A stretch of 42,412 nucleotides of DNA from an uncultured Ardenticatenaceae bacterium (GCA_964405285.1 CAYONK010000001.1:1-42412); one strand, 5' to 3'; shown: positions 16,401 to 42,412, counted from the stretch's first letter. Translations and numbers: made by a program. Notes: a model not told the origin generated them from the sequence alone.

Positions 16401-16513
16401 AGCAGCAGATAGGCCAGCAAGGTTTTGGGGCGGTCGGCGTTGAGAGTGGGCAGGGAACGGCCGTTTATCTGCACATTAAACTCGCCCAAAAGGCAAATTT
16501 CTATGGGTTGCAT
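13475..16513 (-). CDS. SARP/BTAD-family transcriptional regulator with NB-ARC-type ATPase and TPR repeats (AfsR-like)
   Basis: N-terminal winged-helix plus BTAD (ICLLGEF.V..NGR...RPKTLLAYLLL). P-loop ITGPGGMGKTRLA. The C-terminal half has a TPR-like periodicity. Confidence 0.85.
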   Translation of the reverse strand: MQPIEICLLGEFNVQINGRSLPTLNADRPKTLLAYLLLHRDAPQSRRHLAFLLWPDSTETQALSNLRYLLHTLRQALPNADSYLVADKLTLQWRPQLPYRLDVADFEEALLAAGQTADPHTARRWLEQAITHYRGDLLPANYEDWLIPQRDDLARRYQAALVQLVDLLTEAGEYQAASDYAQKLTQQDPLNEAHTIRLLRLHALAGERSAVRRVYQQCVDRLAQELGVEPEAATQAAYEAALAQAASAVALPPTLAPSEPRPLPQPPTPFIGRAVELLEIGRLLADPHCRLLTITGPGGMGKTRLALQTAVSQQPHFRDGVAYVSLRPLNSADFLAATIASALNLTLAGQPDTRSQLLHLLSQREMLIFLDNFEHLLQGIDLIADILAQAQGVKLLVTSRQRLDLQEEWSFALGEFTLPAAPVAAEMENSSAVALFTQSARRADNNFNLTPADYEAVARICQLVGGLPLGIELAASWTRLLSCAEIAQEIEQSLDFLVVSTRNIPAQHQNLRAVFDQSWALLTPAERQRLQALTIFQGSFTRSAAAAVAEAALPLLSSLIDKSLLRRQGPDRYSLHELIRQYAGERLHADTTAYQEVAAKHGRYFLDWLADSEANLFSHLRSLVFEQLTTSVGDLRVAWEWGLAQQQWDLLLRAARTYPTCFELRSWNQEGLRVLSDTTERLQPLVKTESVNPAARLLLGAVLGSQGWFHFRCGQMAEARTALDESLPHIRMSAPHAEKERCLQFALFQLGMVAYISGDYATAQSALDEGLAISQRLKDDWGEAYSLAILGMVRLAQGQAAQAYELLSKSLTIWRRNGSPRLGVFCFSFFGIVTRVIGKHEEAEAALQEGLTLAQNAGDRYGVATFLHNLGALKLAQADYEEAETAVHSSLTIFTELGDRWRITQGQTLAAAIRLAQGDYAGSETAYRDAFATAVAAHALPYALEALAGLADLYAQTGQKAAAYALAQRVQSHPASSGPVQTRAAKLVTQLAEKGMGETAVAPSIAELLARI

Positions 16514-21253: not shown

Positions 21254-23523
21254 ACGTACAACTTCTCCAATATCGAGTCAAGCAGTCGCTCTGATTCAGG
21301 CGTTTCGGCTTTAATGAGGCGGGTATATTCCCCACCACGACGCCACAGTTCTTCATGTGTGCCACGTTCGACCACCTGGCCGTTGTTCAAGACGATGATC
21401 TCGTCACAGTCACGGATGGTACTCAGCCGATGGGCGACAATCAGGCAGGTGCAGCCGCGACGGCGCAAGTTGTCATCAATCAGTTTCTCGGTGATGGGAT
21501 CGAGAGCGCTGGTGGCTTCGTCGAGAATCAAGATAGATGGGTCGCTGATCAGCGACCGCGCGATTTCCAGGCGCTGCCGCTGCCCACCGCTGAAGTTACG
21601 TCCCTCTTCCTCGACCATGTGATCGTACCCGGCGGCCTGGCTGGTGATCTCATCGTGAATATGGGCATCTTTAGCGGCGCGGATGATCGTCTCTTCCGGA
21701 ATTTGCCGATCCCACATGGTGAGATTGTCGCGGATGCTCCCTTCAAAGAGGAAAATGTCCTGATCGACAATGCGCAACGAATGGCTGACGACCACACGCG
21801 GAAATTCTTCGCGCTCACGGCCGTCAAAGAGAATTTGTCCATCCCAGGGACGGTAAAGACCGGCGACCAGGCGGGCAATGGTAGATTTGCCGCTGCCACT
21901 ACCACCAACCAGGGCCACGCGCATCCCCGGTTGTAAAGAGAGGTTGAAATTCTGGATCAGAGGGGCAGCCAGGCGGCTGTAGCCAAAGGTCAGGCTACGG
22001 ATTTCGAGCTGCCCCATCAGTTTTTGTAGGGAGTGGTCGGCGTCTTCCAGGAAGGTGTCGTCCGCCAAATCCACTCGCGGGTCCGGCTCATAATTGGTCA
22101 CGTCGTTCAGGCGGCGGACAATGCCATCTACTTCTTGCAACTGTGTACCCAATTGCACGACCTGGTTCACCGGCGCCAAAAAACTGGACATCAACGTTTG
22201 AAAAGCGACCAGGATGCCAACGCTCATTTGCCCATTGAGGATCAACGACGCGCCAACGATGAGAATGACGACGGTGGTGATCTGGCTGAGCAAGAAGGGG
22301 ACGACGTTGATGATCTGGGTGGTGGCCCCTAGCTCCTGGTTGGCGTTGAAAACTTTGGCCTGATACCCAGACCAGGTGGCGAAAGAATCAGCCTCGCGCC
22401 CGGTTGATTTGATCGTCTCGATTTGGGACAGGCTGTTGAAGGTGGTGGAGAGCAATTTGCCATGTTCTTGAACCAGACGTTGGTTAACATCTTTGCGGCG
22501 ACGCGCCACCATGCGCAGGGCCAGGAAGTTGAGGGCGGCCATCCCGATGCCGATGAGGGTTAGGGTGACGCTGTAATGAAACATGAGGATGGCATAGAAG
22601 AAGATCAGCACGCCGTTAAGCAAGGTGGTTGCCAGTTCGCCGGAGAGGAGTTCGGCGACGCGGTCGTTTTGTTCGATACGGGCGCTGATGTCGCCTGCGC
22701 CACGCTGGCTGAAGAATTCAATGGGCAGACGCAGGATATGCCAGGTGAGGCGGCTGGCATTGGACAGGGCCAGCCGCGTTTCTAGGCGCAGTAGATAGCG
22801 CTGTTGCATCCAGGTGAGGATGGAGCGCAACACGGCCGTTAACGCCATTCCGCCCAACAAAGGAACCATCCACTCTGTGCGACCGCCCACCAGGTAATAA
22901 TCCACAAAGACCTGGGAAAAAGCGGGGATCAGTAGGCCGGGAATGACCAGGACCAGGCTGACCAACACAACGAAGGCCAGAGCCATTTCCACCCCTGCCA
23001 GCCGGGGCAGCAAGGCGGCTGCCAGGCTTGGCTTTTTGCCCTGCGGTTGAAAACCCTCTCCTTTGCTAAAGGTCAAGACCACGCCAGTGAACGCTTCATC
23101 TAGCTCCTGGGCCGACACTGTGCGCGGGCCGGTTGCCGGATCGTTCAGGTACACCGTATCCTTGTAAAAGCCTTCGAGGACGACAAAATGATTGAAGTTC
23201 CAGTGGATGATGGCGGGCAAGGGTACGTCGCGCAGACCGGCCGGCTCTTGCCGGTATCCTTTGGCTGTCAGGCCATAGGTGCGCGCTGCTTTGACCATGT
23301 TGCTGGCTTTGCTGCCATCTCGGTTCACGCCGCAGGCCGCGCGCAGCTCTTCCAGGGGGATGTGGCTGCCATGATAGGCGAGGATGCTGCCCAAAGCGGC
23401 CGCGCCACATTCGACCATTTCCATCTGCAATACCGTGGGTGTTTTGGCGCGATGTCGCCCAAGCAGGTATTTTTTCAGTTCCGGCCACGCCTTTTTTGCT
23501 CTCTCGATCCGGTTTTCGTTCAT
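21250..23523 (-). CDS. Bacteriocin/lanthipeptide export ABC transporter with N-terminal C39 double-glycine peptidase domain (LanT/NHLM ABC1 type)
   Basis: C39 catalytic Cys context LQMEMVECGAAALGSILAYHG and His context IIHWNFNHFVVLEG. Walker A GGSGSGKST, signature FSGGQRQR and Walker B LILDEATSALD. Confidence 0.9.
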   Translation of the reverse strand: MNENRIERAKKAWPELKKYLLGRHRAKTPTVLQMEMVECGAAALGSILAYHGSHIPLEELRAACGVNRDGSKASNMVKAARTYGLTAKGYRQEPAGLRDVPLPAIIHWNFNHFVVLEGFYKDTVYLNDPATGPRTVSAQELDEAFTGVVLTFSKGEGFQPQGKKPSLAAALLPRLAGVEMALAFVVLVSLVLVIPGLLIPAFSQVFVDYYLVGGRTEWMVPLLGGMALTAVLRSILTWMQQRYLLRLETRLALSNASRLTWHILRLPIEFFSQRGAGDISARIEQNDRVAELLSGELATTLLNGVLIFFYAILMFHYSVTLTLIGIGMAALNFLALRMVARRRKDVNQRLVQEHGKLLSTTFNSLSQIETIKSTGREADSFATWSGYQAKVFNANQELGATTQIINVVPFLLSQITTVVILIVGASLILNGQMSVGILVAFQTLMSSFLAPVNQVVQLGTQLQEVDGIVRRLNDVTNYEPDPRVDLADDTFLEDADHSLQKLMGQLEIRSLTFGYSRLAAPLIQNFNLSLQPGMRVALVGGSGSGKSTIARLVAGLYRPWDGQILFDGREREEFPRVVVSHSLRIVDQDIFLFEGSIRDNLTMWDRQIPEETIIRAAKDAHIHDEITSQAAGYDHMVEEEGRNFSGGQRQRLEIARSLISDPSILILDEATSALDPITEKLIDDNLRRRGCTCLIVAHRLSTIRDCDEIIVLNNGQVVERGTHEELWRRGGEYTRLIKAETPESERLLDSILEKLYV

Positions 23524-25546: not shown

Positions 25547-25639
25547 GATGCCTTCCTGTGAAAGTCTTACTTCGAGTCTAGCTTCAATCCAGGACCAACA
25601 CCATATGGGGGTAGTTACATTTCGCCTATGACTTTGACT

Positions 25640-26901: not shown

Positions 26902-29900
26902 TTACTCCTGGGGCAATTCAAACAGCAACAGAGAAGGTATATCTGCCGGATAGGCAACTCTTAAGAGACTGTACCCAATGCCGGCAAGGCCATTCATGAG
27001 ACCCATAGTCTCGATACCGAGCGGCGCGCCGCAAATAAGTCCTTCCTGGCAAATGGATGCTATGAGATCGTTCGCTAACTGCTGCACGTGGGCTTTTAGG
27101 TTAGCATCTGACAGTTGTTGTGCAGCCTGGAGCAAGAACTCCAGGTTGCCAGACGCGCCATGACAGAGCGAGTGGTTGTCGCCCACTCCTGTGGTGAGTG
27201 CGCTTTGCACGGCCGTTTTGATCTCCTCGCGCATTTGGGGGTCATCCATATAGCGGGTGGATGCTAAACGCGCCATTCCCACGCCGGTTATCCCATCACA
27301 CCAGGTGGCAGGCAACTTAGATCCCTCGGCAGCTAAAACAGACCGCTCATAAGCGATAGCAGAAGCGGCTGCCTGGTAAAAACGAGGTTCCCCGCTGACG
27401 TGGTGCAGTTTCAATAATGCCCAGGCAATCCCGCTCCCCCCAGTGGCAAAGCCTACGTTGTGAGAATTGTTTTGTAGATTCTTCTCTTGCCAGGATATGC
27501 CTGATGCTGAATGCTGTGCCTTGTCGAGCAGCCAATCGCCGCATTGTATTGCCGCATCTAGCACCGGTTTTGAAGGACGATGGGCATACAGGCTGGTAAG
27601 ACAAACAATCGTACCGGCCGCGCCAGAGAGGATGTCAAAATGGGTATCGCGTTGGATGAGTGAGGTAATGTGCTGCACATAATGTTCGGTGCGTGCGAGA
27701 AGGTCTTCGTCTTGCCAGAGAGTACCCAGATGCGTCAGGGTATAAATAATGCCACCCCATCCATCAAATCCGCCAATCAATTTAAGTGCGCGCTTCATGG
27801 CTAATGTTGGGTTTTCCACCCAGCCAAGCACAGAGTTGATTGTGTGCCGGGCCAGGGTGGTGTAACGGCCGTTGTCCGTCACGCGCCCCAGGTGAGCTAA
27901 AAACAAAGCGCTGCCCGGCAAACCACTGTAGAGGCTTGTGTTCCCCGCTTCCAGGAACCACTTATGTTCTTGGGCATATAGATCAACCCAGGTGGCACGA
28001 TCTCCTTCCCGGATGGCTGACGCCGCAATTCTCTCCCCTAACACGTTCGCCAACGCAAGCGGATCGGGGCGTGTACCCGGTGAGGCAAGCAGGACGGGTT
28101 TTCTCCGCACTTCGCTGGCAGACGACGACCGGACAAATGAAGCGCGCACAAACCAAACCTGCCGCTCGTAATCGGCCGCGCTCAAGTCTCGTAGCCGGTT
28201 TTTAGCCAACTCCAGCCCAGACTCTTCCAGGTAATTGGCGATGCAGTCGCCGCGGCTGCTCCATACATGCTCTGAACCGGGTTGGGTCGTGAAAAAAGGA
28301 ACATCCAATTGCCACAAATCGTTGCGTTCAAAAGGAATTAACTGTTTTAAGTGAGGCTGATCAGGCACTTCAAGCCACAATTTGTCACATGTTTTCTCGT
28401 AATTCAAGCCATCGCGCAGCTCTTGTGGTTGTAAGCATTGCCGCAATAACAGGGCATAGGTCATGCTGTTTCTGGGCACAATGCGCGTTTGATCGGTTGC
28501 AAATTGGTCTAAGGGGCTGCCGGGATGTAATAACTCGTCACGATGATCGTGCAATAACCAATACATAGCGTGAAATCCGGCAAGAACCTCGTCTATATAC
28601 GCCAGGCTGTTTATCGGTTGCCCTTGCAGGTGGGGTTGGTGATTTGTCACCCCTCCCGAAATTGGTTTGTGGGCGTACTGCATTTTGTCCGTTCCTACAT
28701 TTTCCAATACCAACGCTGTTCGTGTACTCTCGCTGGCAGCATCTCCCATGCCGCCTATGTCCAAACCGAGGCTGATTAACCTGATGTTGGGCAACAACAA
28801 CGGGTTGACTACCGAGTCGTTGATTTGTTTGTAGGCCGTGGCGATTGCGCCGTGCGCAGCCATATATGTAGGATGAAATAATGTCTCCAGATCGATCAGC
28901 ATGGGGTGTTCACCGGAAGCGATCACATTTTCATAATGAAAATCAACCCCTTTCAAAATGGTTAACAGCCCCAGATACCCTCCTTGCCTGGTGAAGAAAC
29001 GCCTGACTTCTGCTTCTGTGGCGCAAGCCTGCGCAGACACAAATTCGACCCAACCATGGCTGCTGCGATTGAGCAGCGGTAATGTTGCCAGGGGTGGGGT
29101 GAAACCTCGCGCATTGATCCAGCAAAGCAGAGATTGGAAATGCGCGTCAACGTCGAGTGGTTTGGGCTTATAGACCAACTTTTCGCCGGAGCGAAAGGTG
29201 ACGATCATGACTCTGGCGCTGCCAGCGTGGCGGTCTCCGGCATTGGCGTTGATCTGGGCTACACAATCAGAGGGATCTATCGCTGCGAAAGTATGGCAAA
29301 TGTCTTCCCAATCGCTGCATAAGCGCTGCAGGAATAGGCGTGTTGCTTGAACCCAGTTCTGCAAAAAAGTAATCAGCAAACGAGCCAGGACCGGATATTC
29401 TTGTAAGAGGGAAAGCGCCAAATCTGGTTGATGCAGACGGCCGATGAAACTTTGGAAACGAGCTTCTGGTGTTTCACCTTGTAAAAGGCCCAGCACACGT
29501 GCCGCTTGAAGTTCCAAGACCATGACCGGCGTCAATATCGCTGTTAATTCGTCTAACAAGGGGCTGAACAAGATATCTTCGATGGTGGTTTTATCAATCG
29601 GGCTGGGGAAACGGCCGTTTTGCCCAACAAGCTCGCTGACAGTTACATGAACGGCCGTTTGCGATTGCTGGATCAATGGCTTGATCAATGCGAGAAAAGT
29701 CGTATCTATCTTTGCCCGCAAAACCTGCGATAGCCCAGCATCGGCGTCAAGGTTTGTCGAAAACGCCGCCAATAACTCAGCAACCCACGCTTGCTTCGCC
29801 ACACGCCCTTGCAAAGTCACTGCCGGTTCAGCTAATAAAGAGAGCAGCCCCTCTTCTGTCAGATGGCTCTCCGCCAATCTCTGCGCAAAATACCCATCCT

Positions 29901-30096
29901 GGTCAAAAGGTCGCTGACGCTTCCATTGACCCAGGCGCTTTAGATGACGTTCAGAAGGCGCTTGTTCCACAGGTAAATTGTTATGGTCCTGATAGAGAGA
30001 ACTTGTCCGTTCAAACAGCGTTGCTGCCTGTAACCATAAGGGCGTGTCAAATTTTGCATTCAGCATGGCTAAACTCAACGGAGACAAATTTTTCAA
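26902..30096 (-). CDS. lanM: Class II lanthipeptide synthetase LanM (dehydratase + LanC-like cyclase); start uncertain (TTG 30096 or ATG 30066)
   Basis: Dehydratase motifs GDRHAGSARVMIVTFRSGEKLVYKPKPL and HYENVIASGEHPMLIDLETLF. Cyclase motifs GGSGIAWALL, WCDGITG and CHGASGNLEFLL, which carry the Zn ligands. Confidence 0.95.
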   Translation of the reverse strand: MKNLSPLSLAMLNAKFDTPLWLQAATLFERTSSLYQDHNNLPVEQAPSERHLKRLGQWKRQRPFDQDGYFAQRLAESHLTEEGLLSLLAEPAVTLQGRVAKQAWVAELLAAFSTNLDADAGLSQVLRAKIDTTFLALIKPLIQQSQTAVHVTVSELVGQNGRFPSPIDKTTIEDILFSPLLDELTAILTPVMVLELQAARVLGLLQGETPEARFQSFIGRLHQPDLALSLLQEYPVLARLLITFLQNWVQATRLFLQRLCSDWEDICHTFAAIDPSDCVAQINANAGDRHAGSARVMIVTFRSGEKLVYKPKPLDVDAHFQSLLCWINARGFTPPLATLPLLNRSSHGWVEFVSAQACATEAEVRRFFTRQGGYLGLLTILKGVDFHYENVIASGEHPMLIDLETLFHPTYMAAHGAIATAYKQINDSVVNPLLLPNIRLISLGLDIGGMGDAASESTRTALVLENVGTDKMQYAHKPISGGVTNHQPHLQGQPINSLAYIDEVLAGFHAMYWLLHDHRDELLHPGSPLDQFATDQTRIVPRNSMTYALLLRQCLQPQELRDGLNYEKTCDKLWLEVPDQPHLKQLIPFERNDLWQLDVPFFTTQPGSEHVWSSRGDCIANYLEESGLELAKNRLRDLSAADYERQVWFVRASFVRSSSASEVRRKPVLLASPGTRPDPLALANVLGERIAASAIREGDRATWVDLYAQEHKWFLEAGNTSLYSGLPGSALFLAHLGRVTDNGRYTTLARHTINSVLGWVENPTLAMKRALKLIGGFDGWGGIIYTLTHLGTLWQDEDLLARTEHYVQHITSLIQRDTHFDILSGAAGTIVCLTSLYAHRPSKPVLDAAIQCGDWLLDKAQHSASGISWQEKNLQNNSHNVGFATGGSGIAWALLKLHHVSGEPRFYQAAASAIAYERSVLAAEGSKLPATWCDGITGVGMARLASTRYMDDPQMREEIKTAVQSALTTGVGDNHSLCHGASGNLEFLLQAAQQLSDANLKAHVQQLANDLIASICQEGLICGAPLGIETMGLMNGLAGIGYSLLRVAYPADIPSLLLFELPQE

Positions 30097-30183
30097 CCTT
30101 GGGAAACGTGTCCGAGGGGATTAAGAGGGTTTCATTGTTTGCGCGGGACATCTTTTTTATATCCCAGATGCAACGCAACTATA

Positions 30184-30226
30184 CAGCCTCTCAAGACCTG
30201 ACAGGTTTTTAACGAAGCATTTGGCA
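30184..30226 (-). promoter_or_regulatory. Operator/promoter element copy A upstream of lanM (shared with 36530-36572)
   Basis: Plus strand reads CAGcCTCTCAAGACCTGACAGGTTTTTAACGAaGCaTTTGGCA, a 40/43 match to copy B. The core is the palindrome AAGACCTG-A-CAGGTTTT. On the minus strand a TATAGT -10-like hexamer follows directly (30178-30183). Confidence 0.55.
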
Positions 30227-30336: not shown

Positions 30337-30401
30337 AAATAAAAAGGGTTGCTCCCCGGTCAAATTGTAATAACGCATTCAATTTGACCGGGGAGCAACC
30401 C
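30337..30401 (-). terminator. Strong intrinsic terminator between lanA and lanM
   Basis: Minus strand reads GGGTTGCTCCCCGGTCAAATT-14 nt loop-AATTTGACCGGGGAGCAACCC-TTTTTATTT. This is a perfect 21-bp stem that begins 10 nt after the lanA stop. Confidence 0.85.
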
Positions 30402-30410
30402 TGACACAAT

Positions 30411-30620
30411 TTATCGAGTGTTAATCTTGGTGTTACCACAAGTGTTGATACAGGTCCAGGCTCCACCGGCAACTTCTTCCAACTCTTCATCCGACAATTC
30501 GGCCATGTTGTCGGGGGAAGGCGGCAAAGCAGCGAGTTGATCGGGGGATAAACTGTTGCGGAATTCCTCATCTTTCCAGGCCTGCACAATTTCTTGGGGG
30601 GTTGGGGTATATTCTGACAT
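30411..30620 (-). CDS. lanA: Lanthipeptide precursor LanA, mersacidin/lichenicidin-type leader with double-glycine site; predicted core AWTCINTCGNTKINTR
   Basis: AAGGAGA SD lies 11 nt upstream. The leader is IVQAWKDEEFRNSL...AELSDEELEEVAGG, with hydrophobic residues at -4, -7 and -12. The 16-aa core has 4 Thr and 2 Cys. Adjacent to lanM. Confidence 0.9.
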   Translation of the reverse strand: MSEYTPTPQEIVQAWKDEEFRNSLSPDQLAALPPSPDNMAELSDEELEEVAGGAWTCINTCGNTKINTR

Positions 30621-33680: not shown

Positions 33681-34451
33681 TCAGGCAAGGACGAGTTCGG
33701 GGCTGTTAAGCAGCAGCCGCGCGACGACGCTCTTTAACCCTTCGGTGAACGGGTGGTCGGGATAGTTTAGGCAGAACAAGGCGGCGCTGCCGTTTTCGGC
33801 GATGTCTATGGATAGGGGCAGCAGGGCCGCCACGTCGCAATGGTAGGCATGCTCAACTTGTTCTTGTACCTTGTCAAAGTTGTATTCTGGGGGAACTTTG
33901 TTCACAACCAGGCTAATCTCTGGCACACGCAGGCGACGGGCGACGTCTACTGTGACGCTGGTTCCCTGGAAATCTTGCTGGTCGGGGCGGAGAATGATGA
34001 CCAGGCTGTCGGAGATGGCGATGGAGAGCAGGGTTTCTTCGTTCAGGCCAGGATGGGTGTCAATGAGCAAATAATCTAACGATAAAGCGGCGATCAAATC
34101 CCTGAAGGCGCTGTGCATATCGCTCGCATCGTATTTTTCCCGCAAGATACGGGCGATGTCGTTGGGATCGAGGCTGGAAGGGACAAGGTGGACTTCGCCA
34201 CCCTGTTCTGACTCATATACTTTGTAGGCGGCGTCTTCGATGGCGCATTTGCCCCAGAGAAAGTCATTGAGTGTGTGGACAACGGCCGTTTCCGCCAGCT
34301 CGAAAATGACGTGAATCCCAGGAGATTGAATATCTGTGTCAAACACGCCAACCCGGTAGCCTTCTTGAGCCAATAGCGCGGCCAGGTTTGCCGTTACGTT
34401 CGATTTACCCGTGCCACCACGAAAAGAATGTGTCGAAATAATCTTGGTCAT
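33681..34451 (-). CDS. MinD/ParA-family (SIMIBI) P-loop ATPase
   Basis: Deviant Walker A FRGGTGKSNVTANLAALLAQEGYRVGVFDTDIQSPG and Walker B YLLIDTHPG. Starts 14 nt after the upstream gene's stop. Confidence 0.85.
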   Translation of the reverse strand: MTKIISTHSFRGGTGKSNVTANLAALLAQEGYRVGVFDTDIQSPGIHVIFELAETAVVHTLNDFLWGKCAIEDAAYKVYESEQGGEVHLVPSSLDPNDIARILREKYDASDMHSAFRDLIAALSLDYLLIDTHPGLNEETLLSIAISDSLVIILRPDQQDFQGTSVTVDVARRLRVPEISLVVNKVPPEYNFDKVQEQVEHAYHCDVAALLPLSIDIAENGSAALFCLNYPDHPFTEGLKSVVARLLLNSPELVLA

Positions 34452-34465
34452 CGGTTATCTCCCTC

Positions 34466-36148
34466 TTATACTAAAATAAGCTGGTTATCCACGCTCACGG
34501 CGACAGCCTCTTGCTTCATGTCTTGCTTAAGATTCGTCGCAAAATGAATAACGTCATCCAGGTGCGCATCTAGCGCTTTTTTCGAGACGAAAGTGCGCAC
34601 GATTGTCACTTGTTCTGTTACCAGGCCGCTCTCCTCACTGCGCCAGGCCCCCTCGGCATTACTGCTCGTCGCCCCCCCAAACAGATTTCCCAGGAAAGAT
34701 AGCGTCGCTTTTACCTGCTTGCTGCTGTCTACCTGTTGGTCCACATTGATCGTAGATGGCACAAACAAGGCCACTGCGTGGTTTAAAGAAAGTCGGCGAT
34801 AGACTTCGTGCAATGCCTGGGTTAGCAGGCTATCAGGGGCGCTTTGTATCAAAGTCAATTGTTGCTTGTTAGCCGAGGCCACCGCCGTTTCGTCGGCAGG
34901 GATGACCAGGTGAAAACGAGCATCCAGATTAGACGGAGGCTGTGCGCCGCTTTGTAATGCCAGGACGCGCTTCTGACCGGGGAAAGAATAGGGCTGTAAA
35001 CTTGCCCAACGTTTCAACGCATCCTCCGCGCCATCCGGGTCACGAGTCAGAGTGATCAGCGTATGGGCCTGCCCGCGCAGACGAGACGTTATCTCCAGAT
35101 TGTCCCTGCTGCCAGCGTCGCAGATAATGTACTCATATTGGGCTGATAGATCGCTCAGAAGCATGTCCAGCTGCACCTGAATGGCGTAACTGCTTGGGTC
35201 AAGAGCGGCGAGACGATCGGGGCCATCGCTATAGGCTGTGATGTTAGCCTGCCCAACCTTCTTGTCTGACGTTGCCATCACCCTGCCGGGCCATTCATTG
35301 TCGAGTTGGTTCAATGACCAAAAAAGGACTCGGCCGGCCGTGTCCGATTCTGTTTGTTGATGCGCCAGCCAGGCCAGATTCAGCGCGAAGGTGGTTACGC
35401 CAGCCCTGGGATGAACGCTGTCCACCACCCACAGTTTGCGCTGGTGCTGGGAGCTGGCCTGCTGGCACGTGGTTAACTGTTGACTGAGGTGACGGTTAAG
35501 CGCCTGAGCAAACTTGCCTTGCTCCTGAATGAACCCCAAAAAGTCTGAGGTTGACCAGGCGAGCAGGGTGGTGGCGGTAACGGCCGTGTAAGTCGTTGTC
35601 ATCGGCGTTTCGCTTAGACCTTCGGCCAGCCCAATCCAACTTCCTCGATGCAGATAATTCCCCGCCTGTTTTGTTTGCAGACTGCGCAGCCGTGTTTGTA
35701 CCAGCAACCCTTGTTGTACCAGCCAGACCCAATCCGTTTTATGCCCTTGCCAGGCAAGCACTTCGTCTGGAAGAAGAGTGCGCTTTTGGCTTAGTTGCAG
35801 GAGTCTTTCTTTCGCTGAAGGGGGGAGAACGGCCGTTAACGGAACCTCCGTCAAGAAGGCGTCCGGGGTCTGCTCTAACAAATTTACAATCGCCGCCGGC
35901 ATATTCCACACCGCGCGGCGCTTAAATTGGAAACGGGCCGAGAACACCCGTTTCCCCCTACGCAGCTGTTCTACGATCCGATCTTGCCGCAACAGCCCGT
36001 TCAGCACCTTCTCCACTTCCGTCAGTTCCATTCGGGCCTGCGCAGCCAACTCAAAGATCGTCAGCTGCGGATGCCTGGTCAGGCACCGGAGAATGATTTG
36101 CTCGTCTGAAGAGACAGAGAGTAGCTCAATAGGAGAAATAGCCGCCAT
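34466..36148 (-). CDS. Multidomain protein: N-terminal wHTH, cyclic-nucleotide-binding-like domain, degenerate ParA-like domain, C-terminal GGAT...GAW domain
   Basis: The wHTH (SPIELLSVSSDEQIILRCLTRHPQLTIFELA) is paralogous to the 90-aa ORF upstream. The cNMP-like segment reads VLAWQGHKTDWVWLVQQGLL...GSWIGLAEGL. KLWVVDSVHPRAGVTTFALNLAWLA is a ParA fold lacking the P-loop Lys, and YEYIICDAG is its Walker-B-like motif. Confidence 0.65.
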   Translation of the reverse strand: MAAISPIELLSVSSDEQIILRCLTRHPQLTIFELAAQARMELTEVEKVLNGLLRQDRIVEQLRRGKRVFSARFQFKRRAVWNMPAAIVNLLEQTPDAFLTEVPLTAVLPPSAKERLLQLSQKRTLLPDEVLAWQGHKTDWVWLVQQGLLVQTRLRSLQTKQAGNYLHRGSWIGLAEGLSETPMTTTYTAVTATTLLAWSTSDFLGFIQEQGKFAQALNRHLSQQLTTCQQASSQHQRKLWVVDSVHPRAGVTTFALNLAWLAHQQTESDTAGRVLFWSLNQLDNEWPGRVMATSDKKVGQANITAYSDGPDRLAALDPSSYAIQVQLDMLLSDLSAQYEYIICDAGSRDNLEITSRLRGQAHTLITLTRDPDGAEDALKRWASLQPYSFPGQKRVLALQSGAQPPSNLDARFHLVIPADETAVASANKQQLTLIQSAPDSLLTQALHEVYRRLSLNHAVALFVPSTINVDQQVDSSKQVKATLSFLGNLFGGATSSNAEGAWRSEESGLVTEQVTIVRTFVSKKALDAHLDDVIHFATNLKQDMKQEAVAVSVDNQLILV

Positions 36149-36219: not shown

Positions 36220-36492
36220 TTAGTTAAAAAGCGTATCCAACAAGCTGGACCCACGTTCCCGCTTGGGCTTATAAGATGGTTGGAGCAGAACCTGAAACTT
36301 GCTTTCGCCATCTTGGTTAAGACGGCAGTCTCGAACCATTCGGTTGACAAGGCCCTCCAACTCATCCAACGGAATTCTGGTCAAACCAGCGATCTCTTGC
36401 AAAGTCAGACGTGGTTGACGCACCAGGCAACGAATGACATCTTGTTCTTGACTTGATACAGTTAACAAATCCAGCGGAGACATCAAAGTCAT
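36220..36492 (-). CDS. Small winged-helix (MarR-like) DNA-binding protein, 90 aa
   Basis: ATG at 36492 lies 8 nt after an AAGGAGAA SD. MTLMSPLDLLTVSSQEQDVIRCLVRQPRLTLQEIAGL is about 45-50% identical to the N-terminus of 34466..36148. The tracked start at 36582 would read through the promoter element. Confidence 0.7.
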   Translation of the reverse strand: MTLMSPLDLLTVSSQEQDVIRCLVRQPRLTLQEIAGLTRIPLDELEGLVNRMVRDCRLNQDGESKFQVLLQPSYKPKRERGSSLLDTLFN

Positions 36493-36529
36493 GACGTAAT
36501 TCTCCTTACAGCTAATGTTGATAATTACA

Positions 36530-36572
36530 CAGTCTCTCAAGACCTGACAGGTTTTTAACGAGGCGTTTGGCA
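36530..36572 (-). promoter_or_regulatory. Operator/promoter element copy B upstream of the small wHTH gene
   Basis: Plus strand reads CAGtCTCTCAAGACCTGACAGGTTTTTAACGAgGCgTTTGGCA. On the minus strand, CTGTCA (-35-like), a 17-nt spacer and TAATTA (36522-27), then an SD and ATG 36492. Confidence 0.55.
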
Positions 36573-36766
36573 AACCCACCAAGCCTGTATCATGACTAAT
36601 TTTGTAAAAACTCCAGAGTAAACATACGCAATTACAGCTATATTATTAACCAGGATCGCTTCGATTGCCTGATATAGCAATCATTATTCAATTATGATTT
36701 TGCTGATAGGGGCTATATGACCAGCGGTATAGTCCGCGGCGTCCGATCTTGTCACCCAAGACTGCA

Positions 36767-37474
36767 TTATTCAACAATAACCCGATTAATCCAGGCCCAC
36801 GTAACCGCTTCTGCTCTATTGCGTATCCAAGGGATCTTGCGATAAGTGTTTTGTAAATGAGACTTCACCGTTCCCTCGCTAATGTTTAACTGCCTGGCAA
36901 TCTCATCATTAGACAAGCCACGCGCCAAAAGTTGAACAATGCTGATCTCGCTCCCACTTAATTCTTGATTCATCTCAGGGATAAAACGCAACATCGTATT
37001 CTGAATTTGCTGATTGAGTACAGTCTGACCTGAGGCCACAGAGCGAATCCCATCCACGACCGTTCCCAGATAATCCTGTTTAAGCAAATACCCTTTAGCT
37101 CCTGCCGACAACATACTCCAAACATAATGCCGGTCGTGGTAACTACTAAAGACCAAGATCTCTGCATGTTCAGCGTCAGGGTTCCCTGCCCTCCTCTTGC
37201 CGAGGTACCTTGCAACCTCGATCCCGCTCAAATTGCGCAAATTTATATCAAGCACAATGACGTGGGGACCAAGCTGTTCGGTGAGCTGAAGCAACTCTTG
37301 CCCATCATCTGTCTCGCCAACGACGAAAATATCGTGGTGCTTTTCGATTTCTTGCCGTACTCCCTGCCGCACGATCTGATGGATATCCGCGATGAGAACA
37401 CGAATGGTATCTATGCTATAGGGCTGGCAGGCAATGCCGCCATTCAAGTTAGTTTCAATTGAATTTTCAAGCAT
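36767..37474 (-). CDS. NarL/FixJ-family response regulator (REC + LuxR-type HTH), second copy
   Basis: REC domain with VIVLDINL, the phospho-acceptor Asp context. The first acidic pocket is LIADIH, with a single Asp. C-terminal LSGSEISIVQLLARGLSNDEIARQLNISEGTVKSH. Confidence 0.85.
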   Translation of the reverse strand: MLENSIETNLNGGIACQPYSIDTIRVLIADIHQIVRQGVRQEIEKHHDIFVVGETDDGQELLQLTEQLGPHVIVLDINLRNLSGIEVARYLGKRRAGNPDAEHAEILVFSSYHDRHYVWSMLSAGAKGYLLKQDYLGTVVDGIRSVASGQTVLNQQIQNTMLRFIPEMNQELSGSEISIVQLLARGLSNDEIARQLNISEGTVKSHLQNTYRKIPWIRNRAEAVTWAWINRVIVE

Positions 37475-37707
37475 GGACCCTATTTTCCTTCCAAAGCACT
37501 GAATCGTGTTGAGGAAAAAAACCTATTTACATTGTGGCTAAGTGACCACTATCCTGTGACTTTGAGTTTATTATTGGGTTCAGAAACAGCACAAAACACC
37601 TGAGGTTCAGGCTTCGAAAACGTGACTAGACCTCATCCTCTTTGATGAGCTTACGATTGATCTGGTACGACTGGCTGCTCAGCGCCTGGAACGCGCAAGA
37701 ATGGCGT

Positions 37708-38400
37708 TCATTCAACTTCAACGATTCGGTTTTCCCAAGCCCAGGCAACCGCTTCTGAGCGTGTACGGATGTTGGGAAGCTTTTTATACGTGTTCATCAC
37801 ATGGTTCTTAACTGTACCGACGGCGATGAACAACGCCTCAGCGATTTCTTCATTCGTATAACCTTTAGCCATCAAACGCAAAACCTCCAACTCTCTCTGG
37901 CTCAGGTTGTGGCGAGGTTCTGTCCGGCGCGTCAGAAGCATCTTTTGTACCGGCAAGCTCAGAACAGGCTCCCCGTTGATGATCTGGCGAATGCCGGAAA
38001 TGATACGCTCAGGGGTTTCGTCTTTCAGCAAATATCCTTTGGCCCCGGCAGCAAACAAATTATATACGTACTCTGGCTCACAATAAGCGCTGAGAATCAG
38101 GATGTGCGGTGGCCAATATGAAGCGTGTTCCGGCTGATCCTCTATCAGGATTTCGCTCATTTTTTCTGTCACGTCCGTGCCCTGCAAGCCAGGCATATTG
38201 ATGTCTAAGACAAGAACATCTGGCCGAAGCTTGCGGGCCATTTCCAACGCTGCGTATCCATCCGCCGCCTCGCCGACGACTTCGATGTCATTACAGCGTT
38301 CTAAAGCGCTGCGAATACCAGAACGAACGACGTGGTGATCATCAGCCAGAATAACCCGTATTTTTTTTGCTAGTTGGTTAGTTTCATGCTGAACCATCAT
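37708..38400 (-). CDS. NarL/FixJ-family response regulator (REC + LuxR-type HTH), ComA-like position
   Basis: ILADDHHVVR and VLVLDINMPG are the REC motifs. The HTH is LSQRELEVLRLMAKGYTNEEIAEALFIAVGTVKNH. ATGA overlap with the kinase stop. Confidence 0.9.
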   Translation of the reverse strand: MMVQHETNQLAKKIRVILADDHHVVRSGIRSALERCNDIEVVGEAADGYAALEMARKLRPDVLVLDINMPGLQGTDVTEKMSEILIEDQPEHASYWPPHILILSAYCEPEYVYNLFAAGAKGYLLKDETPERIISGIRQIINGEPVLSLPVQKMLLTRRTEPRHNLSQRELEVLRLMAKGYTNEEIAEALFIAVGTVKNHVMNTYKKLPNIRTRSEAVAWAWENRIVEVE

Positions 38401-40820
38401 ACCTTTTCCTCCAAAATGTCATGATTTGCGAATGGAACAATTACCTCCAGAGACGTACCAGAACCAGGGGTCGAAGCGATCTCAAACGTTCCATTGAGCA
38501 GTTCGACTCTTTCGCGCATGCCTACCAAGCCAAAATGATCCTGCTCCATCAAACTCCCTAAGCGTGCCGGGACGACAAAGCCTAACCCATTGTCACTAAT
38601 ACTTAGCTTAAGCTGTTCTTGCCGGATTGACAAATTGATTGCGATTTGGGTTGCTGAGGCATGTTTGCGGGTGTTTGTCAACGCTTCTCCTGCGCACCGA
38701 AACAGGCACAGCGCCAAATCCTCATCAACAGGTATCGCTCGATCCCCTTCGATGGTCAGAGACACTCCAATATCTGATTCCATCTCAAAACGATTCGCAA
38801 GAGAACGAATGCTTGACACAAGCCCTAAATCCAAAGCAGCCGGGCGCAAATCCTGGCACAGCAACCGCGTCGTTTGGATGAGTTCGCCGATTTTTTCTTG
38901 TAAGTCCCCCACCAACGCTCTGTCGTTTACATCTTGCAGAGCAAGTGAGTGACCAACTTCAATTTGGGCCATCTGATATTTCAGACCGATCAAATGTTGG
39001 ATGACCTGATCGTGCAATTCGCGGGCGATCCGTTTTCTTTCCTCTTCGCGGGTTCGATTGATTTCTTTTTGATATCGTTCGTTTTCACGCGCCTTCTCTT
39101 CTAATTCGCTGATTAGTTGGACGTTTTGCAGGATAACGCCTGCCTGACGCGAGATAACGTTCAGTATCCCCATATCTTCCGTGTTGAATAGATCTCCTCC
39201 GTATTTGGGGCCAAGAAGGAGGAGTCCCAAGGAATTTTCTAATCCACGGATAGGAACCCATAGGCGAACTGCGCCGCTCTCAAGCAATTGCTTCTCTTCG
39301 CTGGATAACTTGCTGCGAGGAAGTTCTCGTTGAATTGTTTGATTATCTATCGGGTGAGATTTCTGTTTCAGATATTGGGAAATATTCTGCAAATTCGCAA
39401 GTTTTAACCCATCTAAGGGGATGGGGGTCTGTGTGTTGTCTGAAACGTAAGACGTTGTTTGTTTTGGTAGTTTTCCTTGCCAGAGTAAATACACCCAATG
39501 GACGCGCATTGCCTTTTGTACGCTGACGCTCAACGTTTCAGCAAGGGTGTCTATGTCGGCTGTCTCTTCGAGTTCGTGCGTTACCTGATTGACAACTGTT
39601 GGATAGTCGTACCAGCCTCCATATAGAAGGTAATCTACCAAATTTTGTAACCGACGGTACAGCGGGTTGTAGATAAGCACCAGGGTCAAAATAATGAGCA
39701 GATTGGTTAATGGGCTTGTTAAGATGTCATGGTGAAGCAGATTTTGGGCGGCATAAATGATTCCGAAGTAAAAAAAGCACAATAAACCGGTGACGTAGAT
39801 TGCGGTTGCGCTGCGGCTCACATATCGTTCAACTCGGATAAATTGATGCTTGCGAATCGCGTAGCCATACCCTATCGGGATGACGACGAGAAACGACAAA
39901 GCTATTTGAGCGGGTAACAGCATCTCGTCTAGCAGAATCTTGGGGAAAACTGAAAGGCTGAGTAACGGCATACCAGCCATCAAGCCAGAAAGCGTCACCA
40001 TGCCAATCTGCCGTTTGGTTACAGGAGAAGCAGTATGGCGATACGCCCGAATTAACAATAGCATAACAACAGTTAGCCCAATTAGTATCCAGGTATAGAA
40101 GGCGACGGCATACCAGGTTGAAGCGGAGTTTGGCACTGTGATGAATTCGGTCGCTATCACCAGTCTGAACAAGATACCTGACGCGGCAATGCCATATATG
40201 ACAAAAATAGAGCTGTTGTTATGCCAGTTGGTATGGTTAAAGGGAAAAAATAAATGGAAGTGGATGGCAAAGGCTACGGCACACCATGTCAAGATATTTG
40301 CAGCGTGTCCGGCCCAGACTTCGCCTGTGACAACGCCCAAAGCCAGACTGGTGCCGAGCGTTTGGTACCATAAAAAGAAAAGCAAAGTCTCCTTTGTGGT
40401 GGTTGGCGATAAGAGGATGACAGCCATGCTGACTCCCCAAAACACCAGGGCAACGAAACTCAATGAGAGTCGTGTGACGAGGATAAAAGGCGGTGCAGGA
40501 TTGGTATACGACCGCTCTAACACCATCTCTTGACCATCTCGAAGGATCTCCAGAGAAATGCGGTCCCCTGTTTGCCACCGGTAATAGGGAAAACCACTTT
40601 CTCTGAGAGATAGGCCATCAATTCTTATGATTTGGTCGTTTACTTGTAGGCCAGAATGTTGATGGGCGTAATAAATAATCCCGTTGTCTGCCCACAATGC
40701 ACCTAATTCTGGTTGTATTGTTGTTTGCCAGATTGACCAGTTGATGGCCAATAGTGAAGAAATTGCTATCACAGCGATGGAGATCTGGACTGCAAAGCTT
40801 TTTTGATGGATTGCAAACAT
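38397..40820 (-). CDS. Polytopic sensor histidine kinase (PDZ-like extracytoplasmic loop, about 10 TM, GAF-like, HisKA_3, HATPase_c), ComP-like architecture
   Basis: H-box RIARELHDQVIQHL (HisKA_3). N/G boxes EALTNTRKHA, DNGLGF and GLVGMRERVELLNGTFEIASTPGSGT. The N-terminal 430 aa are highly hydrophobic. A GLQVNDQIIRIDG...GDRISLEILRDG segment follows TM1. Confidence 0.85.
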   Translation of the reverse strand: MFAIHQKSFAVQISIAVIAISSLLAINWSIWQTTIQPELGALWADNGIIYYAHQHSGLQVNDQIIRIDGLSLRESGFPYYRWQTGDRISLEILRDGQEMVLERSYTNPAPPFILVTRLSLSFVALVFWGVSMAVILLSPTTTKETLLFFLWYQTLGTSLALGVVTGEVWAGHAANILTWCAVAFAIHFHLFFPFNHTNWHNNSSIFVIYGIAASGILFRLVIATEFITVPNSASTWYAVAFYTWILIGLTVVMLLLIRAYRHTASPVTKRQIGMVTLSGLMAGMPLLSLSVFPKILLDEMLLPAQIALSFLVVIPIGYGYAIRKHQFIRVERYVSRSATAIYVTGLLCFFYFGIIYAAQNLLHHDILTSPLTNLLIILTLVLIYNPLYRRLQNLVDYLLYGGWYDYPTVVNQVTHELEETADIDTLAETLSVSVQKAMRVHWVYLLWQGKLPKQTTSYVSDNTQTPIPLDGLKLANLQNISQYLKQKSHPIDNQTIQRELPRSKLSSEEKQLLESGAVRLWVPIRGLENSLGLLLLGPKYGGDLFNTEDMGILNVISRQAGVILQNVQLISELEEKARENERYQKEINRTREEERKRIARELHDQVIQHLIGLKYQMAQIEVGHSLALQDVNDRALVGDLQEKIGELIQTTRLLCQDLRPAALDLGLVSSIRSLANRFEMESDIGVSLTIEGDRAIPVDEDLALCLFRCAGEALTNTRKHASATQIAINLSIRQEQLKLSISDNGLGFVVPARLGSLMEQDHFGLVGMRERVELLNGTFEIASTPGSGTSLEVIVPFANHDILEEKV

Positions 40821-40851
40821 TGTTTTAGTGGTCTTATCAAGGGTATGGTGG

Positions 40852-41775
40852 TTATGGGTGATGTTGAGTGAGGTTATATTGATTTACCATCTGTTGCAGT
40901 GTTTTGTTTGTTTCTGTGGGGATTGTCATCCTTGCTAATATCTGCATAGCCTGATCGCGGTGAAGCATCGCTTGTGTTGCCAGATAAACGGCTGCGCCGC
41001 TTTGGAGGATTAACCGCCGCGCTGTCTCTTTTTTTGCTGGTTCGGTGGACTTGAGTAAAGATAATAACTCATCTTGTTGTGTTGCGGGTAAGACTGTTAG
41101 GGCATAAGCAATGGGGAGGCCATGCCCGCTGCTGATATCTAAATCTTGTTCTGCGGTGAGGTCGGTCAGGTCATCGTGAATCTGGTCTAGTAGCCCCAGA
41201 GTGCAGCCAAACTGGCGACATAATTTTAGCTCTTGTCTGTCTGAAGTGGCGATACGGCTTCCTGCCCAACAAACCAGGCCTAACCCAACGGCCGTTTTAT
41301 TCCGGGCGATCTCCCAACTTTGGTCCAGACTTGGCATGCGTATGGACAAATCATCATGTTGGCCTCCACATATTTGCAGCAAAGCGACATGGAATTCCCG
41401 CCGAATCTCCTGCGCAGTTTCAGATGGTATCGTATGCGATTCCAATTCGCCAAGTAAGTAGCTCGCCGTAAAGATTAAACCTGTCGAGACGTTGAGGGTA
41501 ACGGCCGTTTGCCCCGATAACGCCTGATGATTATCTTCAACGTCGTCCAACAAACGGGCGGCATGGCGTAACACGTTCCAAATCGTCACAATCGGCGCCG
41601 TTTGCTTAAGGTCGCCCCCATACGCTTCACAGAATATAGAAGGCAGCCTTGACAACGCGCTGTCCGCAGATGCAGTTTCGCCCGTCCACTGGCAGAGCCT
41701 TCGCAGAGTGGCAACATAATCTGCGCTAATTTGAGAGTCAGACCAAAGAGCGTCAATTCCAAAGGTTTCAATCAT
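40852..41775 (-). CDS. Polyprenyl-synthase-fold protein lacking IPP-binding basic motifs; ComQ-like peptide isoprenyl-transferase candidate
   Basis: Two Asp-rich motifs, LLDDVEDN and IHDDLTD, plus GGQHDDL and NKTA. GGDLKQ replaces GGKRxR, and no RRG follows the first Asp-rich motif. No Lys-rich C-terminal motif. The stop is 31 nt upstream of the kinase start. Confidence 0.7.
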   Translation of the reverse strand: MIETFGIDALWSDSQISADYVATLRRLCQWTGETASADSALSRLPSIFCEAYGGDLKQTAPIVTIWNVLRHAARLLDDVEDNHQALSGQTAVTLNVSTGLIFTASYLLGELESHTIPSETAQEIRREFHVALLQICGGQHDDLSIRMPSLDQSWEIARNKTAVGLGLVCWAGSRIATSDRQELKLCRQFGCTLGLLDQIHDDLTDLTAEQDLDISSGHGLPIAYALTVLPATQQDELLSLLKSTEPAKKETARRLILQSGAAVYLATQAMLHRDQAMQILARMTIPTETNKTLQQMVNQYNLTQHHP

Positions 41776-41867
41776 GGACTGTCACGAGACAAGCTCAAAT
41801 GGATTATTGAAAGCGCTCCGGGAGATTTTGGCAATCTTTGCAAGCGCAAATGCGCACCCCCAAAACG

Positions 41868-41893
41868 AAAAAAGCCAAGTTTTCACTTGGACT
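41868..41893 (-). terminator. Weak hairpin + T-tract after the 72-aa peptide gene (possible attenuator)
   Basis: Minus strand reads AGTCCAAGT-gaaa-ACTTGGCTTTTTTCGTTTT. The core stem is only 6 bp, followed by T6. Confidence 0.3.
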
Positions 41894-41927
41894 TTTATTT
41901 CAACGTAAATATGCGAATGATATTCTC

Positions 41928-42146
41928 TCAGGGTATCCACGCTTGTTCTGGCGCAGGACTGGGCACGTAATCGGCGGCAAGAAGCTGGCGCAAGGAATCC
42001 GAGTTCTGAATCATCGAAGATAGGGCTTGCTTTTCTGCCGAGGCAAGATTGAATTGCTCAAGCAGCGCTGGACCCTGTTGCATAATCTCAGCCAACAATG
42101 TTGAATTGGAAACAATCTGATACACAACTTCATGTAAAGTATTCAT
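41928..42146 (-). CDS. 72-aa RiPP-type precursor peptide candidate (ComX-like): helical leader, C-terminus ...AADYVPSPAPEQAWIP with the only Trp 3 residues from the end
   Basis: A GGAGG SD lies 5 nt before the ATG. The leader segment LLAEIMQQGPALLEQFNLASAEKQAL resembles NHLP-clan/LigA-like leader domains. The gene is first in a co-oriented string with the ComQ-like, kinase and regulator genes. Confidence 0.65.
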   Translation of the reverse strand: MNTLHEVVYQIVSNSTLLAEIMQQGPALLEQFNLASAEKQALSSMIQNSDSLRQLLAADYVPSPAPEQAWIP

Positions 42147-42412
42147 GTTGTCCTCCAGGAGATTCTGAGTTCACAATAGCAACAAATAAAATCCAGCAGA
42201 TCCAACATTAAACTCGCCGGGCGCGATAAGCAGCATTTGGCGTGGACCCGCTGTGGTTAACGTGAATGTGAGAGCAAATTTTTCTGCACGCTGAAAAGCC
42301 CATTTTTTATCATTTGTATATTTTTAACTTACAAAAGAGATTGTATACCACTTATGATTATCAGTGTAGAAAATAAGTCATTTTTTGACTATGACTTTCA
42401 CCACATATTTGC

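Follow-up and report, generated by a model that had tools for sequence, protein, structure and literature searches.

Near the end of the 42,412-nucleotide (nt) DNA stretch analysed here (the window, taken at its full length), which comes from an uncultured Ardenticatenaceae bacterium (GCA_964405285.1 CAYONK010000001.1:1-42412), five open reading frames (ORFs), X, Q, P, A1 and A2, follow one another on the minus strand between 36767 and 42146. An earlier reading made from the sequence alone (the sequence-only reading) had placed the same five ORFs at these coordinates and on this strand, and had proposed that they make up a peptide-pheromone module of the ComQXPA type. Our analysis finds this identification probable, with X as the candidate precursor peptide, Q as the putative transferase, P as the sensor kinase and A1 and A2 as the response regulators. 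The five genes, with lengths in amino acids (aa) where given, are as follows:

41928-42146, minus strand: X, 72 aa, with a single Trp (W70) in a C-terminus reading ...PAPEQAWIP
40852-41775, minus strand: Q, a polyprenyl-synthase homologue of 307 aa
38397-40820, minus strand: P, a polytopic HisKA_3 kinase of 807 aa
37708-38400, minus strand: A1, a NarL/GerE response regulator
36767-37474, minus strand: A2, a second NarL/GerE response regulator

X has a GGAGG ribosome-binding site 7 nt 5' of its ATG, P starts 31 nt past Q, and A1 overlaps P by 4 nt. The last two spacings are those of the sequence-only reading, which had also spoken of a GC-rich background; this does not hold for the module, whose GC content is 45-50%, compared with up to 64% elsewhere in the window. 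Along the window the GC content is 56-64% between 6 and 25 kb and drops to 45-52% between 30 and 42 kb; the latter stretch, which contains the module and some of a lanthipeptide cluster, may be horizontally acquired DNA.

Related loci were mapped by gene-neighbourhood reading together with tblastn. The order X-Q-P-A1-A2 is kept in all 11 independent loci of the close clade, and X-Q-P is retained, in most cases with a single regulator, in some 13 loci that are more distant; the exception among the latter is L012, where the order is P-A-X-Q. In total, Q has a small ORF next to it in about 24 independent loci, which, where they are named, come almost without exception from metagenome-assembled genomes of Anaerolineae. 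One of the distant loci lies on a 66% GC contig (L037), where an 81-aa ORF ending in ...SNWG is followed by Q and then by the genes for a kinase and a regulator. In the window, and likewise in all related loci examined, X comes ahead of Q, and since the flanks upstream of X are unrelated from locus to locus, the conserved block begins at X. This recurrence of the small ORF with its Trp, and of the gene order, in about 24 independent loci is more than chance. The 72-aa ORF proposed in the sequence-only reading is therefore real and conserved, its C-terminal Trp being invariant in 21 peptides, and the small Trp-containing ORF beside a transferase-kinase-regulator triad, which that reading had suggested looking for in homologous loci, is indeed kept there.

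A word-index search among 5.8 billion proteins found about 27 relatives of Q, and those that are named all belong to the Chloroflexota, class Anaerolineae (Ardenticatenaceae, Caldilineales, Thermoflexales and Anaerolineales), in agreement with the non-Bacillus background that had been proposed. The family is much larger than that search implied, since in a full HMMER scan 535 clusters (50% identity) match the Q family profile at E up to 1e-30; the matches come from several Anaerolineae orders and at least one high-GC lineage. A metagenome scan yielded just 8 further loci, mostly short. Identity between loci increases from X through Q, the P sensor and the P kinase core to A1.

Alignment of 21 X peptides leaves only two invariant positions, Met1 and the tail Trp. 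In the window this Trp is W70, carried by the tail segment DYVPSPAPEQAWIP; it is the third residue from the end, followed by Ile-Pro, so that the Trp is not terminal. Tails of the close clade read W[IV]P or W[IV]PPxx[PT], with 2-6 residues after the Trp, and those of distant members read ...GWFVP..., ...NWKWG, ...WWV or ...SNWG. A shallow AlphaFold model of X (predicted local distance difference test, pLDDT, 74) predicts that residues 4-59 fold into helices and that 60-72, which include W70 and have pLDDT below 50, form a disordered tail. Because a protein search with the 72-aa X found one other sequence only, the homologous peptides were read from the loci themselves.

The window X matched none of the curated families. 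Its distant homologues, on the other hand, do match NCBIfam NF038399 ('Os1348 family NHLP clan protein'), L014 at 40.5 bits (cut-off 40) and others at 27-30 bits, with weaker matches to TIGR04509 and TIGR03793, and the close-clade and distant X profiles align with each other (hhalign 92.8%, E 4e-7). Taken together, these two links support, by transitivity, the assignment of the X leader to the NHLP clan, in line with the NHLP-clan-like leader of the sequence-only reading. Homology of the leader to that of ComX, which it resembles by eye, was considered and rejected as unsupported: profile scores were at the level of shuffled sequences, and the Pfam ComX model PF05952 gave no match with the window X and reached E ~0.05 with 2 of its 14 relatives.

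Natural fusions bear on the relation between X and Q. Among the 150 best family representatives, 5 (P0059, P0062, P0067, P0069 and P0146; 401-436 aa) have Q joined in frame to an X-like leader, which scores 20-34 bits against the X profile, with a Trp in the linker, and such fusions support a physical or functional partnership of the two proteins. One more protein, P0075, looks fusion-like by eye and falls below the X-profile threshold. The P0059 gene (L035) has a stand-alone receiver-domain gene on one side and a large nonribosomal peptide synthetase (NRPS) gene on the other.

Q matches the Pfam model PF00348 (polyprenyl_synt) at 57 bits, above the cut-off of 27 and far below the scores of true synthases, and it reaches none of the NCBIfam equivalog cut-offs; the JGI label of most Q-family members is geranylgeranyl diphosphate (GGPP) synthase. 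Both Asp-rich motifs are kept, as had been reported: DDVED at 77-81 and DDLTD at 201-205, with D77, E80, D81, D202 and D205 invariant in 23 homologues. A Gln stands before the second motif (Q198-D201/D202-D205 in the window Q), and degenerate forms of that motif, NDxxD and NDxxG, are confined to more distant members of the Q family.

The sequence-only reading had further proposed that Q has lost the basic motifs of the isopentenyl diphosphate (IPP) site, and in essence this proposal stands. The first Asp-rich motif is followed by LSG and not RRG (DDVEDNHQALSG, compared by phmmer with DD..D..DLRRG or MRRG of the synthases), and at the position of GGKRxRP, about residues 40-46 of Q (ALSRLPS; family consensus LAxLP), no Lys or Arg is conserved among the Q homologues. 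Q thus appears to lack the basic residues of the IPP site, with the allylic-diphosphate site kept. What probably does not stand is the detail that GGDLKQ replaces GGKRxR, which looks like an alignment error: in the phmmer and Pfam alignments YGGDLKQ faces the loop that comes after helix C in the synthases ('YGATAKD' in 6kd7), Pfam model position 27 corresponds to Q residue 48, and the Q model has helices at 44-51 and 56-80. MAFFT gives an alternative in which the GG of YGGDLKQ is paired with that of GGKRxR.

The AlphaFold model of Q (pLDDT 87) has the all-helical fold of isoprenyl diphosphate synthases (IPPS), and in Foldseek it matches best to synthases of archaea and bacteria and to the indole prenyltransferase Ord1 (TM 0.72-0.79). 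With the Q-family profile, ComQ proteins score 59-78 bits, 6kd7 68.9, Ord1 67.6 and 3nf2 66.6; with the ComQ profile, the Q family scores 23-68 bits, the window Q 39.7 and the best solved (PDB) synthase 37.9. The Q and ComQ alignments also match each other (hhalign 98.8%, E 9e-17). For these comparisons genuine Bacillus ComQ proteins were collected with a ComQ query sharing 99-100% identity with database entries, of which several carry the name ComQ, and E. coli IspA was included as a control. From the reciprocal profile scores and hhalign, Q would be no more distant from ComQ than from any true synthase; the profile and fold comparisons, which the sequence-only reading had suggested, do not single out ComQ as the nearest relative of Q. 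Placement of Q in a specific ComQ clade was considered and is unsupported, the reciprocal profiles, NCBIfam (which returned no ComQ-specific model, even for genuine ComQ), hhalign and Foldseek indicating superfamily membership only.

The kinase P contains HisKA_3 and HATPase_c domains and, in residues 1-390, 9-10 hydrophobic segments, so that its earlier description as a polytopic HisKA_3 kinase is confirmed. Its architecture comprises a first transmembrane segment (TM1), a PDZ-like outer loop, about 8 more transmembrane segments, a linker, HisKA_3 and HATPase_c. BLASTP aligns it collinearly with Bacillus velezensis ComP (57-793 with 60-765, E 2e-26), and the membrane (N-terminal) part alone reaches E 1e-5. 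When the sensor regions of 14 P proteins (first 400 residues) were made into a profile, it matched ComP residues 10-383 at 62.4 bits, compared with a maximum of 6.7 among 300 composition-preserving shuffles, the shuffles being the sole control; the same profile gave 91.4 bits with the kinase of the 66% GC locus L037. The PDZ-like loop after TM1 is common to P and ComP. Judged by such similarity, the sensor match is the strongest link of the module to ComQXPA, and since a sensor of the ComP type accompanies Q and X across phyla, it argues for common descent of the whole circuit and not for convergence.

A1 and A2 each consist of Response_reg and GerE domains and are paralogues, 42% identical, in agreement with the two NarL regulators described before. 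A1 is 73-76% identical within the close clade and 27% identical to ComA, which is a family-level similarity only. A2 is found in all close-clade loci of sufficient extent and in none of the distant loci.

The following putative control sites lie within or upstream of the module:

42375-42397, minus strand: inverted repeat AAGTCAT-N9-ATGACTT (7-9-7), about 230 nt 5' of the X start codon
42340-42345, minus strand: -10-like hexamer TACAAT, 29 nt past the inverted repeat
41875-41890, minus strand: terminator-like hairpin CCAAGT-GAAA-ACTTGG, then CTTTTTTCG, between X and Q
37540-37562, minus strand: weaker candidate operator AAGTGAC-N9-GTGACTT, upstream of A2, with 3 mismatches

The palindrome AAAGTCAT-N9-ATGACTT was found by aligning the DNA upstream of X across species. 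Its exact core, AGTCAT-N9-ATGACT, occurs 17 times in the 447 kb examined, each time upstream of X, in 10 independent loci, and the eleventh close-clade locus (L003) has a copy with one mismatch. At the same distance as the TACAAT hexamer, other loci have TAAAAT, TAGAAT or TATAAT (consensus TAnAAT), which we infer to be a promoter element. The copy upstream of A2 is suggestive of a further operator; the A1-A2 spacers of L001 and L007 contain the equivalent AAAGTCAC-N9-GTGACTT. Further weak copies lie at 36678, upstream of a 90-aa gene described below, and at 25612, inside the lanthipeptide cluster. In all, the window contains 5 sites at 3 or fewer mismatches compared with 1.45 expected, and no shuffle reached 5. 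From its position and conservation, the palindrome is a likely binding site of A1 and/or A2, by which X would be autoinduced.

The hairpin between X and Q is possibly a leaky terminator giving a surplus of precursor transcript. As a general attenuator it was rejected, because the X-Q spacer measures 1-41 nt in most other loci. A generic promoter and terminator scan gave counts at shuffle background, and AGATTGC-type half-sites shared by spacers of the module and of the lanthipeptide cluster, 9-26 across the window, were near chance.

ComX-type pheromones are a textbook lipidated peptide signal that was believed to occur in Firmicutes alone, and the module at hand shares with the Bacillus ComQXPA system an IPPS-superfamily enzyme beside a precursor of 55-80 aa with a Trp near its C-terminus, a polytopic HisKA_3 kinase with a homologous, collinear sensor domain, and a NarL/GerE regulator directly after the kinase. 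As in ComQ, the RRG motif and the GK loop after the second motif are lost in Q, and as in the Bacillus com loci, X, Q and the sensor domain diverge fastest. The gene order, in contrast, is Q-X-P-A in Bacillus and X-Q-P-A-A' here; the leader is probably of the NHLP clan, with no detectable similarity to ComX; the second motif is a full DDxxD where ComQ has GDYYV or NDYKG; and there is a second paralogous regulator, a Chloroflexota host and no known link to competence. A 2014 census found comQXPA-like loci confined to Firmicutes (Dogsa et al., PMC4008528), a 2022 survey reported only a kinase-regulator pair in Chloroflexi (PMC8895600), and a literature search on ComQ/ComX together with Anaerolineae or Chloroflexota found nothing further beyond the work cited in this and the following paragraphs.

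The gene order and leader, which the sequence-only reading had called unusual, do differ from those of Bacillus; they have, however, a precedent in PalP-PalX-PalQ of Paenibacillus alvei, where an NHLP-type precursor stands ahead of the transferase, with a kinase alongside (PMC10853753). PalQ, which has been shown biochemically to prenylate Trp with its second Asp-rich motif kept, resembles Q in having both motifs and a Gln three residues before the second (Q197-D200-D204 in PalQ); the biological role of PalPXQ is unknown (PMC10853753). The order there is P-X-Q, with no regulator described, and in PalX it is the last residue that is prenylated, added C-terminal residues abolishing activity, whereas 2-6 residues follow the Trp in the close clade here.

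Within the same phylum, Sphaerobacter thermophilus (Chloroflexi) has an enzyme, StheQ, that farnesylates W68 in StheX, the 69-aa peptide encoded next to it, as determined by liquid chromatography-tandem mass spectrometry (bioRxiv 10.64898/2026.08.29.745113). This August 2026 preprint states the role of StheX to be unknown, suggests an unrecognised quorum-sensing-related system in the phylum, and reports that an N-to-D change at the second motif lowers the activity of ComQ and StheQ by 90-98%; the term 'histidine kinase' is absent from its text, which describes the stheQ-stheX pair alone (bioRxiv 10.64898/2026.08.29.745113). StheX (about 69 aa), like X, is an adjacent peptide with an ordered leader (1-59 in StheX) and a disordered Trp tail, and the distant member P0023 (L032), with NDCHD and a peptide ending ...WWV, fits the published description. 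The differences are that stheX lies downstream of stheQ, where the peptide gene is upstream here, L032 included; that StheQ has DExxD and NDxxD in place of DDVED and DDLTD; that the StheX tail is WW-x, compared with a single Trp in the window X; and that a ComP-like kinase and regulators are conserved here. A fingerprint of StheQ residue positions matched 0 of the 196 collected proteins.

Ord1 (PDB 9V4G-9V4J), among the best matches of Q (TM ~0.75), likewise has an IPPS fold and prenylates an indole instead of elongating a chain; its indole substrate is, however, a small molecule, with no precursor peptide or kinase context. By these comparisons, the module appears to be a relative of ComQXPA in a new phylum-level setting and not a new kind of system, with traits of its own in the X-Q-P-A-A' order, the NHLP-clan-like leader, the intact second Asp-rich motif, the second regulator and the putative operator.

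Our favoured interpretation, which we think probable though well short of certain, is a peptide-pheromone circuit of the ComQXPA type. It has precedents in ComQ, PalQ and StheQ, enzymes of IPPS fold for which prenylation of a Trp in the C-terminal region of a neighbouring small peptide has been demonstrated (PMC10853753; bioRxiv 10.64898/2026.08.29.745113). The 72-aa X would be made and its helical NHLP-clan-like leader would dock on Q, so that the floppy tail could enter the active site, where Q would attach a geranyl or farnesyl moiety to the W70 indole. The leader would then be cut off and the lipidated tail peptide exported. Outside the cell the peptide would be sensed by the polytopic ComP-like domain of P, which would phosphorylate A1 and/or A2. 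These would bind AAGTCAT-N9-ATGACTT upstream of X, closing an autoinduction loop, and would switch on more targets, perhaps including the strain-variable lanthipeptide cluster next door.

Several results count against such a circuit. All the loci are metagenome sequence or metagenome-assembled genomes. The window X gave no direct match to the NHLP models at E up to 1, and the X profile scored three Bacillus ComX sequences no better than 200 shuffles of each. Neither profile scores nor Foldseek set ComQ apart from the best synthases or from Ord1 as the nearest relative of Q, and the second motif of Q is a full DDxxD in place of the pseudo-motif NDxxx of ComQ and StheQ. PalQ and StheQ were compared with Q by their published descriptions only, and the conserved block contains no protease or exporter.

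These points leave room for other interpretations, of which the most serious, unlikely as we judge it, is that the locus is a natural-product cluster for a ribosomally synthesised peptide with post-translational modification (RiPP), in which prenylated X would have another role, antimicrobial or membrane-active, and the kinase and regulators would control its production or sense envelope stress. An NHLP-clan leader is typical of RiPP natural products, the roles of PalPXQ and StheX are unknown, lanthipeptide clusters adjoin the module, and one fused X-Q relative stands beside an NRPS gene. Against such a product stands a P sensor that is homologous to the ComX receptor domain of ComP and accompanies Q across distant lineages; the palindrome upstream of X, beside regulator genes, fits autoinduction, and the module has neither immunity nor export genes as conserved companions.

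We regard it as quite improbable that Q is not a Trp prenyltransferase at all and either acts otherwise on X, at a different residue or by a cyclisation, or is a working prenyl-diphosphate or terpene synthase with a product destined for use elsewhere, X then having a regulatory or scaffold role. The intact pair of Asp-rich motifs, unlike ComQ and StheQ, would suit such an enzyme, as would the true synthases among the best sequence and fold matches and the JGI name. The loss of the conserved IPP-binding basic residues nevertheless speaks against a synthase, and the Trp is the only invariant residue of the X tail; the distant members with NDxxD or NDxxG have peptides ending in ...WWV or ...NWG, like StheX and ComX, and PalQ keeps its second motif and yet prenylates Trp. 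That the 72-aa ORF is a chance frame, and the rest an ordinary two-component system by a diverged isoprenoid gene, is scarcely credible. It is true that short ORFs are common by chance and that X alone matches no curated family, but the homologous ORFs of about 24 loci, which share a conserved leader and the invariant Trp, effectively refute this explanation, as do the strong ribosome-binding site, the conserved upstream operator and the fusions to Q.

On the ComQXPA-type interpretation, a precursor, a transferase, a ComP-homologous kinase, regulators and a conserved candidate operator occur together in the Anaerolineae, which are abundant, mostly uncultured, filamentous bacteria. If correct, it would make prenyl-peptide quorum sensing far older or more mobile than assumed, give a functional context for the StheQ/StheX pair, provide many natural Trp-prenylating enzymes with varied tail motifs for peptide lipidation, and offer a testable handle on cell-cell signalling and lanthipeptide control in Chloroflexota, neither of which has been studied according to the literature found. 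A broader idea, which we advance tentatively and consider rather doubtful, is that X-Q-P-A is a large and old family of prenyl-Trp signalling systems, with Bacillus ComQXPA as a single derived branch of it, and that in the present lineage, with two regulators and the 90-aa, cyclic-nucleotide-binding and ParA-type genes, it would form a fixed control unit for the lanthipeptide cluster, of whatever kind, that is inserted at the strain-variable junction alongside.

The conserved block often reaches 33681, past the module as first noted, and the lanthipeptide cluster begins beyond it:

36523-36572, minus strand: 50-nt element with palindrome ACCTGTCAGGT, just upstream of the 90-aa gene
36220-36492, minus strand: 90-aa protein with a probable winged-helix domain, a frequent companion, not universal
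34466-36148, minus strand: 560-aa cyclic-nucleotide-binding protein (Pfam PF00027), a frequent companion
33681-34451, minus strand: ParA/MinD-type P-loop ATPase of 256 aa, at the end of the conserved block
30411-30620, minus strand: lanthipeptide precursor candidate of 69 aa, MSEYTPTPQEIVQAWKDEEFRNSL...EEVAGG / AWTCINTCGNTKINTR, as read from the sequence
30177-30226, minus strand: the 50-nt element again, as a second copy, 81-130 nt upstream of where lanM starts
26902-30096, minus strand: LanM, a class II lanthipeptide synthetase (Pfam DUF4135 and LANC_like)

Homologues of the 90-aa protein (89-102 aa) occupy the same position in other loci, and the protein shares 45% identity (E 2e-15) with residues 1-58 of the cyclic-nucleotide-binding protein, being a paralogue of that segment. 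The 560-aa gene is present in 8 of the 10 close-clade loci that are long enough, truncated in L006/L029 and missing from L030, and Pfam finds nothing in its product past the cyclic-nucleotide-binding domain; RAGVTT near residue 260 has, by eye only, the look of a degenerate P-loop. The ParA/MinD-type ATPase is 72-91% identical across species. Since L030 has none of these three companion genes and L006/L029 have the truncated copy, X-Q-P-A1-A2 is the core of the block. In L004, L009, L010, L017 and L031, a dCache_1/HAMP protein of about 500 aa is encoded between the cyclic-nucleotide-binding and ParA-type genes.

The far boundary of the block is marked by strain differences. Two loci, L033 and L034, encode a Q protein identical to that of the window and match the window at 99.6% from 42412 to exactly 33681; they diverge from it at the ParA-type stop codon, beyond which they have a different LanM (30% identity) and a P450. 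In another species, L007 has a third LanM-like gene (28% identity) 124 bp past the ParA-type gene. The divergent LanM genes are located at 18096-20924 in L033, 13511-16339 in L034 and 16970-18877 in L007. The region gave no match in the Rfam or tRNA scans, so that no tRNA site underlies the strain junction past the ParA-type gene; from the strain comparisons, the junction looks like a hot spot for lanthipeptide clusters. No LanM was seen in L029 or L030.

In the window, the lanthipeptide cluster extends from LanM down to about 17150 and includes a C39-peptidase ABC transporter (21250-23523). The two copies of the 50-nt element form a direct repeat, 90% identical with 28 nt exact, for which 0 are expected by chance. 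Three different LanM clusters adjoining the module and this shared element together make a functional link plausible, with the candidate precursor as a possible target of regulation. The sequence-only reading had proposed that the module could control the adjacent lanthipeptide cluster; the adjacency is real and has some independent support in the strain-variable LanM and the 50-nt element, but it is not universal.

Some smaller features of this region may be added. The 69-aa candidate has an apparent NHLP/Nif11-style leader and double-glycine site, and an exact 23-nt inverted repeat lies past it (30345-30402). A regulator of the BTAD-AAA-TPR (SARP-like) type is encoded at the far end of the lanthipeptide cluster (13475-16513, minus strand), and a related BTAD regulator (31% identity) directly past the ParA-type gene in L031 (19694-20999). 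Upstream of the 90-aa gene there is a second palindrome-like motif, GATGATTnnTATATCAGGnAATC, represented in the window at 36663-36682 by GATTGCTATATCAGGCAATC and found at the same place in L001, L003, L004, L029 and L031. The palindrome of the 50-nt element, as ACCTGWCAGGT, recurs in L009 and L010, where it lies upstream of the ParA-type gene, and L029 has three copies of it.

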